Part shown: piece by piece, positions 2,099 through 59,250 of the stretch
Layout of the letters: every line of letters begins with the position of its first letter
How positions within the stretch are numbered: the stretch's first letter is position 1
Source: Eledone cirrhosa
Taxonomy: Eukaryota
DNA length: 64,000 bases
Direction of reading: 5' to 3'
Assembly (NCBI GenBank): GCA_964016885.1
Contig: OZ024743.1
Coordinates: forward strand, 317,502,001-317,566,000
Program-made: the position numbers and the translations under genes
The notes under the pieces: model-generated
What the model was told of the DNA's origin: nothing
The model's input: only the letters and a program-made list of their open reading frames with translations
Database searches by the model: none

Positions 2099-5000
2099 AT
2101 CAGGAAAGAAGAGTGACACGGTTTGCTATACAAAAAAGGTTTTTAATCTCATTACTGACAATTGTTTCTCTGAACTGGTAAGTCTAGAGATCGCTACCCG
2201 CTTATTTTCACGTTATTCGATCACCAATACAAAGTTATAACCAGTCAATTCATCGGAGCTTGTGAGAATGAAAAGAATATACAGGCATGGCTACTATATA
2301 TAGTAGTAATGGCATTCAATCAGAACAATACTAACAATGCTAGCAATAAATTATTTGAAATAATCACAACATCAATCTAGGTGGGAAGTATAGTATATCT
2401 ACGATTTTAGCGTGTAAAACTAGCTGACATGAGGCAGATGTATAAAATTGACATGTAAAAGCTGTCATGGGGTGTGTTATATCTAGTGTAAAGATAAGCC
2501 GGTGTCTTTAAACAATATAGGTTTGGCGGCCGTAAGAATCGTTTATTATCTGACAGATGAAGAATTTATCACTGTAGTGAGATTTGTGTGGTCTATAATA
2601 GATGAAAGAATTGTCTAGCTTTCTCATCATCAATAACATACATGTATAAGACAACATTAACAGAGTAGCAATATAATGGGCAAGTTAATACAGAGGTTAA
2701 GGAGGCAATATATATATATACACATACATGCACACAAACATATATATATATATATATATATATACATACACATATATACATACATATAAAGAGAAAACAT
2801 GCTGACTATAATTATAACAAGAGGAATGTAAAGTTCTGTTGTAGTAGTATTTTGAAATGTTCTCAGATTTAGGTTCAAGTGCTGACAGCAGCTGAGAAGA
2901 GATATGCTTATGGGTTGATGAGGTACTTACAGACATTAGTGTGGTATAGAACTAAGAAGGCTAGAATGTACTTAATGATTATATTTCTGTGGTGGTTCGT
3001 GCAGTGTAGTGGGTATCCTAAGTTGAAAGCTAGGTTATGTCGGTTCGATTCATGGAGGTTTAAATCTTGTGAATTTAGTGCCGATCCTGTATCTGCAGAA
3101 GATAGATCTTTCTAACTTGTTGTTAAGTAGTTTTTTTAACATTTCTAAGGATATACAGTAATTATAGATCACATAGCTTACAGTGGGACATACCGGTACT
3201 GTAGGTCTTTGCGGCCGACAACCTCGACCAGTTGATACTGTAGTTGGTGTTGTTGTCCTTAAGTTCCCAGATTTTTTTGGCGAGTGTTGTAGAACCCATA
3301 AGTGCGCAATTTTTCATCGAGTGTCTGTGCACATACCATCTTTTTTTAAAAGTACCCGCGGTGGATCCAATGTAATGCCAAGTGGAGTTGTCTGAGTTGA
3401 CCGTACACATGTACACTAGGCTCGAATCGAGGCATCTGTTCGCCAATGGGCACCTATCCGGTAGGTGACAGTTACAGTTTGAGGTGTTATTTCGTGTAGC
3501 TTCTACACTGCTGTTTTGTACACTGCTATAAGTGGGTTGTGATTCATGCCCGTTCGGGTTTTGCTGCTGCGTGCTTGTATGCGCTTGCGGTTGTGATACT
3601 GTGATGTGTTTATGCTTATAATTTGGTGCTATGTTGCGCATAGGTGGGGCGGATTCCCTAGAGATATTTCTGTGGTTGATCTTGCGTATGTGCGATTCTA
3701 TATTTGCTGACGTAGAGTATGAGAGTTTTATAGTGTTTCTATTGAGTATTTTATGATATCTGTGTGAAATAGGGAAGTGTTTATCTATTGAAGTGTTTAT
3801 CTAGAATGTAGAAGGCAACCTGGTTTTTACAGAGGAGTTGAAGATTGGGTTGAACCATAGATATTTTCTTTCTCTGATTCTTCTATTGCTTCTAGGGTTT
3901 ACATTATTAGCGTTTGGCCCGCTTACTCTAGGTGCTACGTACCTAACCCTATGTTACCTCTATTTTCGTGTGAGCGGTGGGTGTAATTGCTATTAGGTTG
4001 TTTAAGTTGTCTTTATTCGCTATATACTGCAGTTTATCTTTATGTCCAGCCCTATGTAATGCTGCGTTATAATAGTTAGCATGTTCATTAAAAATTTCTA
4101 AGGGATATACTACGTTCTATGGATCTGATTATGGATTTGGGGTGGTTTGAGTTATAACTAATGTAGGCCAGATTTTCATTATTTTTGTGGAAAGGTTCTA
4201 TTAATCCCGTATTTAGCTTTAGAGTCACATCTAGAAAGTTTACCTTCTTATGGTTCAGTTCGTAGGTAATACTTAGGCCTAGTTTTTTTAAGAATGTTCT
4301 AATGTTTTTTCTGGACATAAAGATAAACTGCAGTAAATAGCGAACAAAGACAACTTAAACAAACCTAATAGCAATTACACCAACCGCTCACACAAAAATA
4401 GAGGTAACAGGACTAGACATAGGGTTAGGCACGTAGCACCTAGTGTAATCGGTCCAAACACTAATAATGTAAACCCTAGAAACAATAGAAGAATCAGAGA
4501 AAGAAAATACCTATGGTTCAACCCAATCTTCAACTCCTCTGTAAAAACCATGCTGCCTTCTACATTCTTTAAACTAATAGATAAACACTTCCCTATTTCA
4601 CACAGATATCATAAAATACTCAATAGAAACACTATAAAACTCTCATACTCTACGGCAGCAAATATAGAATCGCACATACGCAAGATCAACCACAAAAATA
4701 TCTCTAGGGAATCTGCCCCACCTATGCGCAACATCGAGCCTAGTGTACATGTGTACGGTCAACTCAGACAACTCCACTTGGCATTACATTGGAACCACCG
4801 TGGGTACTTTTAAAAAAAGATGGTATATGCACAGACACTCGATGAAAAATTGTGCACTTATGGGTTCTACAACCCTCGCCAAAAAAATTAGGTAACTTAA
4901 GGACAACAACATCAACTACAGTATCAACTAGTCGAGGTTGTCGGCCGCAAAGACCTACAGTACCAGTATGTCCCACTGTAGGCTATGTGATCTATAATTA

Positions 5001-6056
5001 CTGTATATCCTTAGAAATGTAAAAAGGCTACTTAACAACAAGTTAGAAAGATCTATCTTCTGCAGACACAGGATCGCCACTAAATTCACAAGATTTAAGC
5101 CTCCGTGAATCGAACCGACGTAACCTAGCTTTCAACTTAGGATACCCACTACACTGCACGAACCACCACAGAAATATAATCATTAAGTACATTCTAGCCT
5201 TCTTAGTTCTATACCACACTAATGTCTGTAAGTACCTCATCAACCCATAAGCATATCTCTTCTCAGCTGCTGTCAGCAATTGAACCTAAATCCAAGAACA
5301 TTTCAAAATACTACTACAACAGAACTTTACATTCCTCCTGTTATTATTATAGTCAGCATGTTTTCTCTTTATATGTATGTATATATGTGTATGTATATAT
5401 ATATATATGTTTGTGTGCATGTATGTGTATATATATATATTGCCTCCTTAACCTCTGTATTAACTTGCCCATTATATTGCTACTCTGTTAATGTTGTCTT
5501 ATACATGTATGTTATTGATGATGAGAAAGCTAGACAATTCTTTCATCTATTATAGACCACACAAATCTCACTACAGTGATAAATTCTTCATCTGTCAGAT
5601 AATAAACGATTCTTACGGCCGCCAAACCTATATTGTTTAAAGACACCGGCTTATCTTTACACTAGATATAACACACCCCATGACAGCTTTTACATGTCAA
5701 TTTTATACATCTGCCTCATGTCAGCTAGTTTTACAAGCTAAAATCGTAGATATACTATACTTCCCACCTAGATTGATGTTGTGATTATTTCAAATAATTT
5801 ATTGCTAGCATTGTTAGTATTGTTGTTATTGTTCTGATTGAATGCCATTACTACTATATATAGTAGCCATGCCTGTATATTCTTTTCATTCTCACAAGCT
5901 CCGATGAATTGACTGGTTATAACTTTGTATTGGGGATCGAATAACGTGAAAATAAGCGGGTAGCGATCTCTAGACTTACCAGTTCAGAGAAACAATTGTC
6001 AGTAATGAGATTAAAAACCTTTTTTGTATAGCAAACCGTGTCACTCTTCTTTCTTG
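2099..6056. mobile_element. Divergent inverted dimer of a Naiad-like PLE 3' half (left arm minus ~2099-4316, right arm plus ~4317-6056)
   Basis: GIY-YIG ORF 3162-3641 (CNCHLPDRCPL..VYMCTV..HYIGST); arms share ~1 kb of 3' UTR in opposite orientation; same family as 15709-18840. Confidence 0.9.
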
Positions 6057-58300: not shown

Positions 58301-59250
58301 CATTCGACAAAGTTACGTTTGACGTCGTATTTAAATTTACGGAATCTAGCCTAGAGTTAACATTGACGTCGGGCCTACTATTGTTATCATTATGACGCTC
58401 AGTGTTGACGTTATATATTTTTCTTCCTTGATTTTTTTCTTTCTTCTCTCCTTCCATGCTCGTATTAAATCTACTTTTTCCTATTACAATATATAGAAAC
58501 AAACTTGGACCTTAATTAATTCCTCTAAGTTCATAATTCATTTAACCTAATCTTCATTCACCTTATCTTCTTAATATATTTTATTTTAATAATACATTTT
58601 AATAAATTCCTTTTCGCACATCTTATTAAACCCCTCAATATATAAACCTTAAATAAATAGTATTCTTAATTCCTTTTTCTTTAATCATAAGCATCACCAT
58701 TCATAAACCTCATTAACTTTTAATTTCTTAATTTTTTTAAATGTATTATCTTACAACGGTTTTTTTTTTTCTCTGTGAGACAGTGTTTCTCAGTATTAAA
58801 GGTTATCCCTCTCTCTCTCTCACTCATTTTCTCCTCCTCTCTCATCCTTCCTTCTTATACTCCTCCTCTGTCATCCTTTCCTTATTATTATATTTTTTTC
58901 TTCTATCCATATTTTTCCTTCCTCTTCCTTACCTTTTCTTTCCCCCCTTCCTTTCCTTTTTTCCAATCTCATATATCCCTCTTATTTTATTTTTCATATG
59001 TTGATTTAACATTTCACTACTCGCAAGTGTTTTTTTAGACTTCATATCATGTCACCCTATTTTACCTGATGAGAACGCAAATATCATCCCATAATGATAT
59101 CTGTTTTTGAAATGCGCATAATAAAATACATGGAGCTCTTTTAACCATCTTTTGATTTTATATTATTTATACTCCAGTCCTATAAACTGTTGAGTGCTTC
59201 TTACCCGACATTTGCATTGCTTTATTGTGCTACAATAAAACTCACCTCCT
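55318..59250. mobile_element. Naiad-like PLE 3' end (GIY-YIG on minus ~57730-58230) with inverted pLTR arms (55318-56095 / 58405-59162); hammerheads at 55348-55418 (minus) and 59058-59128 (plus)
   Basis: CNCNCPVRTKSPL..VYECKV..TYFGST; TATTTTAC-CTGATGA..GAAA-TGCGCA-TA-ATAAAATA. Confidence 0.85.
56139..57430 (+). mobile_element. Non-autonomous Helitron-like element inserted in the PLE UTR
   Basis: A|TCTATATATATAAAA 5' end; CCCGAGCAACGCCGGG hairpin and CTAG|T 3' end; no TSD. Confidence 0.7.

Follow-up and report, generated by a model that had tools for sequence, protein, structure and literature searches.

Ten insertions in TA microsatellites of the 64,000-nt stretch of animal DNA analysed here (the window, whose positions give every coordinate below) consist of two inverted arms joined head-to-head, and this layout is common to Penelope-like elements (PLEs) and to non-coding repeats carrying type I hammerhead motifs. 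We consider it moderately probable that the two-armed inserts arose mostly from reverse transcriptase priming at both ends of a single cut in a TA tract, with the two cDNAs joined at their far ends, and that the non-coding repeats borrow the PLE enzyme.

Arms, orientation and ends

The initial annotation had listed nine sites at which two opposite arms lie with their tails outward in TA tracts. Inverted arms, sought by BLAST of the window against itself and by arm alignments, are present at all nine (substitution identity 96-99.9%), and the 3' ends face outward in nine of nine, orientation being taken from ORF remnants for inserts 1, 2, 3, 8 and 9 (for insert 9 a GIY-YIG (EN) remnant at 57781-58224, minus strand) and from type I hammerhead motifs for inserts 4, 5, 6 and 7. 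The list itself was incomplete: a tenth insert, again head-to-head, was found (Table 1), and the 19 orientable PLE and hammerhead inserts lying wholly within the window comprise 10 two-armed and 9 single-armed ones, one of the latter ambiguous. The segment 12590-13757, despite a tails-out look from two families, was scored as two single arms because of the short TA tracts inside it, and the palindromes at 1964-2080, 31780-32008 and 60164-61205, for which no orientation was obtainable, were kept outside the two-arm count; that at 1964-2080 is partly intrinsic to its own family, with a copy at 12369. The proposal that one architecture serves coding and non-coding inserts alike holds: five of the nine are PLEs, four assigned to the Hydra type and one to the Neptune/Nematis type, while the remaining four do not code and bear type I hammerhead motifs (predicted ribozymes), two of these four being true retrozyme arrays built of 310- and 476-mers.

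Table 1. Two-armed inserts and a LINE comparison case in the window. Identity is substitution identity between arms; families are assigned from motifs and hammerheads are predicted.
Feature	Position	Strand	Description	Arm identity	Centre
Insert 1, left (long) arm	2098-4312	-	Hydra-type PLE, 5'-truncated, with its tail on the TA tract at 2078-2097	97.4%	265 nt, unpaired
Insert 1, right arm	4313-6062	+	left-arm family; internal deletion of ~205 nt		
Insert 2, left (long) arm	15708-18840	-	Hydra-type family of insert 1	98.1%	1986 nt, unpaired
Insert 2, right arm	18841-19148	+	aborted start of ~35 nt, then 18880-19148		
Insert 3, left (short) arm	22514-23680	-	3' UTR only	97.9%	3415 nt, unpaired
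Insert 3, right arm	23681-28247	+	near full-length Neptune/Nematis-type PLE; RVT_1 and GIY-YIG; broken ORF		
Insert 4	32282-32732		two non-coding arms, both with a hammerhead-like motif; right arm has 92 nt more tail than the left; 13537-13757 is a third copy	96.6%	5 nt, hairpin
Insert 5, left arm	32961-34269	-	retrozyme-type repeat of 310 nt, 4.2 units with 4 hammerhead motifs	99.9% (1 of 1309 sites differs)	189 nt, unpaired
Insert 5, right arm	34270-36111	+	5.9 units; 6 hammerhead motifs		
Insert 6	36176-37368		hammerhead unit of ~527 nt; minus-strand arm on the left (36176-36440), plus-strand arm on the right (36441-37368), the latter a partial tandem	98.1%	12 nt, hairpin
Insert 7, left arm	37401-38696	-	retrozyme-type repeat of 476 nt, 2.7 units with 2 hammerhead motifs	99.7%	170 nt, unpaired
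Insert 7, right arm	38697-39310	+	1.3 units; 1 hammerhead motif		
Insert 8, left arm	48003-50669	-	5'-truncated Hydra-type PLE	98.7%	725 nt, unpaired
Insert 8, right arm	50670-53999	+	1.01 monomers (3291 nt) of the left-arm PLE; ORF 50843-52969, one stop		
Insert 9, left (long) arm	55309-58404	-	old Hydra-type PLE end with nested repeats	96.3%	2310 nt, unpaired
Insert 9, right arm	58405-59166	+	repeats the last 760 nt of the 3' end, inverted		
Tenth insert	15267-15687		arms 15267-15469 (-) and 15554-15687 (+)		(TA)42
LINE fragment	54344-55077		APE-type LINE in (TA)n, not a PLE; inverted 54344-54713, forward 54710-55077; classical twin priming		

The earlier description of 3' ends facing into TA tracts needs correction at some right arms. 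The matched right arms of inserts 1 and 9 end in short AT patches at ~6060 and ~59165, with 172 nt and 86 nt, respectively, between them and the following long TA tract. The right arm of insert 2, facing outward on an ATATA patch, stops inside the element, 919 nt short of the usual tail. The sequences beyond inserts 1 and 9 (6063-6230 and ~59164-59252) may be host DNA or a longer tail; since they have no second copy within the window and no match to an ORF start, they were kept out of the count of staggered arms. In insert 3 the left arm terminates on an AT patch of 7 nt and falls 36 nt short of the end of the right arm; differences in tail length between arms, from 36 to 919 nt, map to AT patches. 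These short template patches are able to pair with (TA)n, and over 17 ends we count 55 matched bases against 15 expected (0 of 100,000 simulations), in support of the earlier suggestion that TA ends do the priming.

The arms overlap in all 10 inserts, and their inner junctions display either 1-4 nt of microhomology or overlap (read from the sequence as CT, 2 nt, in insert 1; GCA, 3 nt, in insert 7) or else a short stretch copied again on restarting at the centre, with insert 5 combining a 4-nt overlap and a copied restart of 10 nt. Centres are 265-3415 nt long in five non-array inserts. Among the four unambiguous cases of nesting, the short arm lies inside the long arm in three (inserts 2, 3 and 6), while insert 8 is staggered, its left arm having 63 nt of additional tail and its right arm 725 nt of additional head. 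Both arms of one insert share a single source at 7 of 7 informative sites in inserts 1 and 2; independent insertion by different source copies was thus rejected for these two, 0 of 7 sites crossing between inserts. A DNA transposon or MITE with long terminal inverted repeats was discarded in view of the unequal outer ends, the variable centres, the single-arm copies and the ORFs encoding RT and GIY-YIG.

The duplicated stretches end at element ends and leave out the host flanks, which, together with the head-to-head order in 10 of 10, speaks against a later inverted duplication at the DNA level, through replication template switching or repair of breaks in TA tracts that form cruciforms, and with no reverse transcription. 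With 26 and 23 private changes, respectively, the arms of insert 1 are of about the same age, which also counts against it. Long TA tracts are fragile, and an identical inverted piece beside a LINE would be explained by such an event, which we nevertheless regard as improbable for the two-armed inserts.

In LINE-1 twin priming, reverse transcription starts from both ends of the target; the resulting inversion has a microhomology join, and its parts are consecutive pieces of one RNA. The microhomology join, and under the favoured reading the two priming ends, would be shared features. The LINE fragment of Table 1 is a case of twin priming, its inverted and forward parts being consecutive, non-overlapping pieces of one ORF; a TA break can thus prime from its second end as well. 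PLE and retrozyme arms, in contrast, overlap and both contain the 3' region rather than being consecutive pieces of one RNA, so that twin priming of the LINE type was rejected for them and a tandem, circular or second RNA, or else fold-back, is needed. Compared with solved structures, the inverted part of this LINE gave unrelated weak matches only. The 95-nt inverted piece adjoining LINE sequence, at 61851-61945, is 100% identical.

Coding and non-coding families

By their motifs, inserts 1, 2, 8 and 9 are Hydra-type PLEs. The clade is described as having RW(K/R), DKT, a CxCx5C linker, CxxC and CxH, no CCHH and (TA)n insertion, a readily detected canonical hammerhead and a length generally below 3 kb (PMC8557442). 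Likewise, the RT of insert 8 has RWR and DKT without GxKF/Y, a region that the other Hydra-type inserts lack; inserts 2 and 8 have a C-terminal GIY-YIG without CCHH, a CxCx5C linker, and CxxC and CxH around E and N, of which insert 9 keeps CxxC and CxH only; and all four sit in (TA)n, with (AT)n loose ends also present in reads. They differ from the described clade in the 3.29-kb monomer of insert 8 and in the outcome of a motif search that found no canonical hammerhead in inserts 1, 2 and 8; by eye, insert 9 has an imperfect one. The Hydra-type ORFs gave no Pfam match, and 607 relatives were found. Insert 3 is, judging by GxKF, DKG, a CX2-5CxxC linker and two Cys between GIY and YIG, a PLE of either the Neptune or the Nematis type, and the family of the tenth insert is the 3' tail (31264-31472) of a PLE at 29728-31472.

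Strict type I hammerhead motifs number 17 within the window and 0 in each of 20 shuffles; those in consecutive units amount to 10 in insert 5 and 3 in insert 7, again with 0 in 20 shuffles. No Rfam match in the window attains the gathering score; below it, at 18.5-19.2 bits against a gathering score of 52, HH9 matches the 13 motif sites in the 310- and 476-mers with agreeing strand, and miRNA matches at E up to 5 were dismissed as TA-repeat and hairpin noise. The 310- and 476-nt units are tandem and non-coding, with a GC content of 34-35% and strongly folding monomers (z of -4.4 and -8.1), and inserts 5 and 7 are accordingly classed as non-LTR retrozyme-type arrays with predicted hammerheads, a group expected to have units of 150 to about 1000 nt and a GC content below 50%. 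Insert 6 has single-arm copies at 6263-6946 and 19555-20036, and its short arm ends where the latter copy ends.

Raw reads of other organisms (runs X3, X7 and X10) provide evidence on the families, though not on the junctions of the window itself. The 476-mer is covered in four of four read runs and has many distinct joints in X10, as befits a dispersed, multi-copy family. Of its joints in this one RAD run (15 listed, 116 further), 13 of the 15 listed switch strand, all 13 readable as head-to-head; joint positions are many, each backed by 48-135 reads. A loose-end signal at 37652-37654 (X10), probably a restriction site of that RAD library, was excluded as evidence. The insert-8 family is a head-to-tail repeated unit with a monomer of 3291 nt, a joint going back by this length being seen in 644 reads of X10 and in contigs of X3 and X7. 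Its (AT)n ends fall at two constant positions inside the element (960 and 532 X10 reads), its read depth increases toward the 3' end, indicating a gradient of 5' truncation, and it has eight strand-switch joints, four of them orientable; offsets of 11 and 18 nt occur among its joints. Assembly or amplification artefacts, in the form of fold-back chimeras, have in their favour that the reads come from other organisms, that the 310-mer arms differ at a single site and that 476-mer strand switches were listed in one RAD run only, but they are at odds with the many positions and depth of the joints and with seven of nine inserts, whose arms differ by 1.3-3.7% and have different template end sites and different flanks. 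We consider an artefact barely credible.

Proposed two-ended priming and its alternatives

In the pathway that we favour, an RT-GIY-YIG protein, perhaps dimeric, would nick both strands of (TA)n, and each 3' end would pair with an AU patch and prime on the RNA of a single locus, in tandem or circular form, one RNA or two sister RNAs giving both tails. One cDNA would then switch onto, or anneal with, the other, and host repair would finish the insertion; failure of the second priming would leave a single arm, and the hairpin-centred inserts (4, 6 and the tenth) may derive from fold-back instead. For two-ended priming speak the stagger of insert 8, whose left tail moreover departs at two sites from the right arm, the two copies of that stretch there being in agreement, the long centres of five non-array inserts, the coincidence of the short-arm end of insert 6 with that of a single-arm copy, the fixed (AT)n ends, 3291-nt joint and 3'-rising depth of the insert-8 family, the both-strand activity of an anole PLE (below), the LINE in the window and the 13 strand-switch joints of the 476-mer.

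In fold-back, by contrast, a single TPRT would suffice: the 3' end of the cDNA would fold over at 1-4 nt of microhomology, copy part of its own strand and then join the other TA end by microhomology. This would produce the 5- and 12-nt hairpin centres and the nested short arms of inserts 2, 3, 4, 6 and the tenth, and the 11- and 18-nt read offsets agree with it. Under two-ended priming, the hairpin centres and the zero offset of the tenth insert around TA need two cDNAs stopping alike, and nesting in three of the four unambiguous cases is a further point against it. Fold-back also demands that source variants be common to both arms, which two-ended priming merely permits, and the arms of insert 8 share them at 23 of 30 sites in their overlap (among 40 variant rows listed of 537). 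Simple fold-back nevertheless fails for insert 8, because neither arm contains the other, although fold-back with one jump over a 39-nt repeat would also yield this insert; inserts 1 and 9 would be staggered too if their right extensions were tail, and the closing of 0.7-3.4 kb loops by 1-2 nt seems improbable. We regard fold-back as rather unlikely to be the main route. The initial annotation's idea that two cDNAs are joined head-to-head is borne out to the extent that insert 8 is hard to obtain from one cDNA and junctions have 1-4 nt of microhomology; as a general route it is weakened by the hairpin centres and the nested arms.

A published model (Arkhipova et al. 2013) has self-priming on an antisense transcript produce a hairpin intermediate that is then integrated. 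It was put forward for palindromic head-to-head junctions in Adineta vaga, according to the available text of PMC3846280, and inserts 4 and 6 are compatible with it. Against it stand the outer ends, both on sense-strand AT patches that match the target, the 5' truncation gradient in reads, the mostly long, non-palindromic centres, and the anole PLE, which extends target DNA on a sense template (PMC11167929, available text); as an explanation for these inserts it appears very improbable. Two-ended priming fits better here, given the insert 8 stagger, centres of up to 3.4 kb and both-strand extension in vitro.

Relation to known elements

The last point comes from the anole Poseidon element PAc, which, in the portion of Frangieh et al. 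2024 (PMC11167929) available to us, cuts AT-rich DNA, both strands of which it extends. Its synthesis begins within the RNA, at fixed sites close to the junction of pLTR and ORF; it has tandem transcripts and is a predicted dimer. It starts without need for primer-template homology, unlike the AT-patch pattern described above, and head-to-head inserts are not derived from PAc there. The annotation had named the self-complementarity of TA as the cause of the two arms; this finds no support in PAc, which extends both strands without homology, in a rotifer whose commonest inverted PLE arrangement is head-to-head and whose copies lie in ordinary DNA with target duplications (PMC3846280, same portion), or in our finding that about half of the inserts in TA are one-armed.

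As far as the available text of PMC8557442 and PMC3846280 goes, EN+ PLEs resemble the present inserts in their partial tandems, in the 5'-truncated copy that lies inverted at their 5' end, in the prevalence of head-to-head among inverted forms, in unequal end tails and in a microsatellite bias; these accounts leave the mechanism open or invoke antisense self-priming, and the 36-919-nt tail differences on AT patches and the staggered arms of insert 8 set our case apart. Head-to-head PLEs and (TA)n targeting are thus already published, and the surprise is limited for coding PLEs, although the formation of tandem and inverted PLE inserts is a named open problem (PMC8557442, same text).

Inserts 5 and 7 resemble metazoan non-LTR retrozymes in their tandem non-coding units, type I hammerhead motif in each unit and co-occurrence with PLEs (PMC7229834; bioRxiv 10.64898/2026.07.22.740005, both in the text available). 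Those are described there as head-to-tail arrays, whereas inserts 5 and 7 are head-to-head two-arm arrays with PLE-type ends in (TA)n. Neither "inverted" nor "orientation" appears in the main text of Cervera and de la Pena 2020 (PMC7229834), and both words are absent, in the array sense, from the available text of Li, Clavereau and Pollet 2026 (bioRxiv 10.64898/2026.07.22.740005); in the literature searched we found no earlier description of retrozyme arrays with this layout. The published case for PLEs moving animal retrozymes is built, in the sources available, on shared ribozymes, co-occurrence and phylogeny, and finding the head-to-head layout in ribozyme repeats points to Penelope as their mover, probably through RNA being copied from both ends of a single break. 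More tentatively, the PLE enzyme might insert retrozyme arrays via two-ended priming on circular or multimeric RNA, in which case each array would be a footprint of trans-mobilisation and two-ended priming a general source of inverted PLE structure. Retrozyme arrays with a PLE layout and target-matched ends constitute structural evidence for the link between PLEs and retrozymes, and the ratio of nested to staggered arms offers a countable test between two-ended priming and fold-back in any long-read assembly.

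Two-armed insertions in (TA)n tracts

The window, eukaryotic DNA with a GC content of 36% and densely packed (TA)n tracts, had initially been annotated as holding nine insertions whose two arms lie in opposite orientation with their 3' ends facing outward into TA. By self-BLAST of the window we recovered inverted arms at 9/9 of these sites and found a tenth two-arm insert beyond them; ORFs and hammerheads orient the arms alike in 10/10 inserts, left arm minus strand and right arm plus, so that all tails point outward. The two-arm observation is real. That both arm ends lie in TA tracts is true of most inserts, but in inserts 1 and 9 the right arm, as far as it matches, ends 172 and 86 nt, respectively, before a long TA tract, and no second copy of the stretches beyond them occurs within the window. 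Substitution identity between arms, from alignments of inserts 1-9, ranges from 96.3 to 99.9%. The layout is common (10/19 orientable inserts, a count that excludes three palindromes without orientation as well as an element that extends past the left end of the window), yet it is no rule: nine further orientable inserts, all PLEs (Penelope-like elements) or hammerhead inserts and read from the self-BLAST, motif and ORF results, have one arm.

Features of the window (centre: unpaired centre, nt; junctions of inserts 1, 6 and 8 read from sequence)
Feature	Position	Description	Centre	Central junction
Insert 1	2098-6062	Hydra-type PLE	265	2-nt overlap
Insert 2	15708-19148	Hydra-type PLE	1986	aborted start, ~35 nt
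Insert 3	22514-28247	Neptune/Nematis-type PLE	3415	
Insert 4	32282-32732	non-coding	5	
Insert 5	32961-36111	310-mer array	189	4-nt overlap + 10-nt restart
Insert 6	36176-37368	~527-nt unit	12	1-nt overlap
Insert 7	37401-39310	476-mer array	170	3-nt overlap
Insert 8	48003-53999	Hydra-type PLE	725	1-nt overlap
Insert 9	55309-59166	Hydra-type PLE	2310	
Tenth insert	15267-15687			
Single arm	6263			
Single arm	12590			
Single arm	13537			
Single arm	19555			
Single arm	28811-31472			
Single arm	32810-32892	hammerhead-motif family		
Single arm (provisional)	39386-39560	same family		
Single arm	40531-43930	GC-rich Neptune-type PLE; terminates in (GT)n stretch within another PLE fragment		
Single arm	45783-47890	GC-rich Neptune-type PLE; minimal hammerhead-like motif near 47775		
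Inverted repeats adjoining TA, no orientation obtained	1964-2080, 31780-32008, 60164-61205			
Tandem units	20068-21889	three near-identical 592-nt units, single orientation, flanked by TA tracts		
LINE fragment	54344-55077	APE-type, in TA tract		
LINE RT piece, inverted copy	61851-61945 / 62161-62255	95 nt, 100% identical; copied from inside the adjacent LINE RT region; TA tracts both sides		

Origin of the second arm

For inserts 1 and 2, members of one family, a comparison of four arms over 273 columns gave seven informative sites, and at 7/7 each arm groups with its partner from the same insert. Of 30 listed sites of insert 8 at which reads differ, 23 show the window's letter in both arms, six are private to the right arm and one is a gap. 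These shared variants indicate that every insert arose in one event and from one source lineage, which rules out chance neighbouring insertions as the arms; a shared source fits two cDNAs and the fold-back of one cDNA alike. Among 20 ends examined, a longer copy could serve as reference at 17, where the TA tract matches 55 template bases against 15.3 expected (0/100,000 simulations); a reduced set of 12 ends, lacking two single-arm copies and three ends with an ambiguous reference, gives 36 matched bases against ~11.

The initial annotation had derived each insert from two cDNAs, and we lean towards such two-ended priming as the main route: two cDNAs, primed from either end of a TA break, would be joined at the centre. 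The nested arms of inserts 2, 3 and 6 (the short arm within the long arm) and the hairpin centres of inserts 4 and 6 speak instead for fold-back of a single cDNA, which we regard as a possible but distinctly less probable source of the second arm. Under fold-back the long arm must contain the short one, a requirement broken by the staggered arms of insert 8: the left one extends 63 nt further at the tail, the right one 725 nt further at the head, and the left tail contains two differing sites where both right-arm copies agree. To make insert 8, fold-back would need an additional jump across a 39-nt repeat. The joining of two ends is likewise in keeping with long centres that are closed by 1-2 nt; two-ended priming and fold-back may both operate.

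An anole PLE is described as cleaving and extending both target strands, starting inside a tandem RNA and forming a predicted dimer (PMC11167929). In the LINE fragment, whose best match named as an animal protein is from Octopus bimaculoides (70% identity, with other matches closer), the inverted part corresponds to residues 289-409 of P0121 and the forward part to the residues following, with no evident loss. This is classical twin priming, and it shows that breaks in TA can be primed from their second end in this genome. The self-complementarity of TA, earlier proposed as the cause, is not needed, since head-to-head copies are also the commonest inverted form of PLEs in Adineta vaga, where they have ordinary target duplications (PMC3846280); TA probably only allows both ends to pair with the same AU patches.

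Coding and non-coding families

Remnants of RT and GIY-YIG in inserts 1, 2, 8 and 9 match relatives of ~700 aa (607 matches among 8000 candidates scored). They share with the Hydra clade both its described motifs (RWR and DKT in insert 8; CxCx5C and no CCHH in inserts 2 and 8; CxxC and CxH in inserts 2, 8 and 9) and insertion into (TA)n, the target of nearly all its families (PMC8557442). Because of its GxKF, DKG, CX2-5CxxC linker and two cysteines within GIY-YIG, insert 3 is classed as a Neptune- or Nematis-type PLE. In the family of inserts 1 and 2 the distal 3' UTR is nearly invariant (9 variable columns in ~650) and the ORF part several per cent divergent (5400-6060 vs 4313-5300).

Type I hammerhead motifs gave 17 strict matches in the window (10 in the 310-nt array, 3 in the 476-nt array, 4 in the ~527-nt unit), while 20 shuffles yielded none, and the insert 4 family gains motifs under a relaxed scan (0 in 6 shuffles). 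All 13 motifs of the arrays were also matched, strand for strand, by Rfam HH9, with scores below gathering. As circles the monomers fold well (310- and 476-mers z -4.4 and -8.1, third monomer -3.0, vs 30 shuffles). By sequence, the 310- and 476-nt arrays qualify as non-LTR retrozymes with predicted hammerheads. A further hammerhead-motif family has two copies tail-to-tail across the TA tract holding inserts 5-7, the left of which starts ~5 nt ahead of the predicted cut site. Motif and Rfam searches of the 592-nt units returned no hammerhead and no Rfam match; their plus strand folds strongly (z -7.6 vs -1.2 for minus), and the unit is possibly retrozyme-like, with a different ribozyme or none.

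Recurrence in raw reads

Read runs of other organisms served as outside support. The insert-8 family is present in 8/12 listed runs; in the four on which it was profiled, depth peaks at the 3' end. In X10, a RAD-type library, reads place (AT)n ends of the family at the fixed positions 50712 (960 reads) and 50801 (532 reads), and the family's unit is set at 3291 nt by a head-to-tail joint (644 reads; contigs in runs X3 and X7). Strand switches occur in 8/15 joints listed (125 further); by side lengths, 4/8 of those listed are head-to-head, none tail-to-tail and four without direction. Depth is many-fold higher at the unit junction (50669-50801, 53923-53999), where a hammerhead-like motif whose core departs from the canonical form adjoins the starting points of many joints (53923-53948). 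This pattern probably reflects a great many very short copies. Nested degenerate pieces of the insert-8 tail lie in insert 9 (57007-57430), and ~50 nt of this stretch also occurs within a different repeat of high copy number (X10: 811 and 949 loose-end reads), whose start resembles Helentron-type repeats.

The 476-mer is covered in 4/4 runs, and 13/15 joints listed (116 further) switch strand, all 13 in X10 raw reads (48-135 each). Their direction comes from side lengths rather than from the joint listing: in six, the short side equals the distance to the masked edge 37568 within 0-1 nt; in six, position plus side is 37798, as for a 150-nt read from the pile-up at 37649; and in one this sum is 6 nt off. 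In all 13, we infer, both arms run toward the element's 3' end. Since they come from a single reduced-representation run, these joints demonstrate recurrence, not frequency.

Among the textbook features of PLEs are tails, a bias towards microsatellites and inverted copies truncated at the 5' end (PMC8557442), and head-to-head architecture is already known for coding PLEs, with self-priming on an antisense template as a published explanation (PMC3846280). Our literature search found no derivation of head-to-head PLEs from two cDNAs and no inverted retrozyme arrays; the words 'inverted' and 'orientation' have 0 uses in the main text of the 2020 retrozyme paper (PMC7229834), and a term search in text of a 2026 retrozyme preprint (bioRxiv 10.64898/2026.07.22.740005) found neither in the sense of inverted arrays. 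What is new is the test of nested versus staggered arms, and the extension of the head-to-head layout to hammerhead retrozyme arrays, where it recurs in raw reads.
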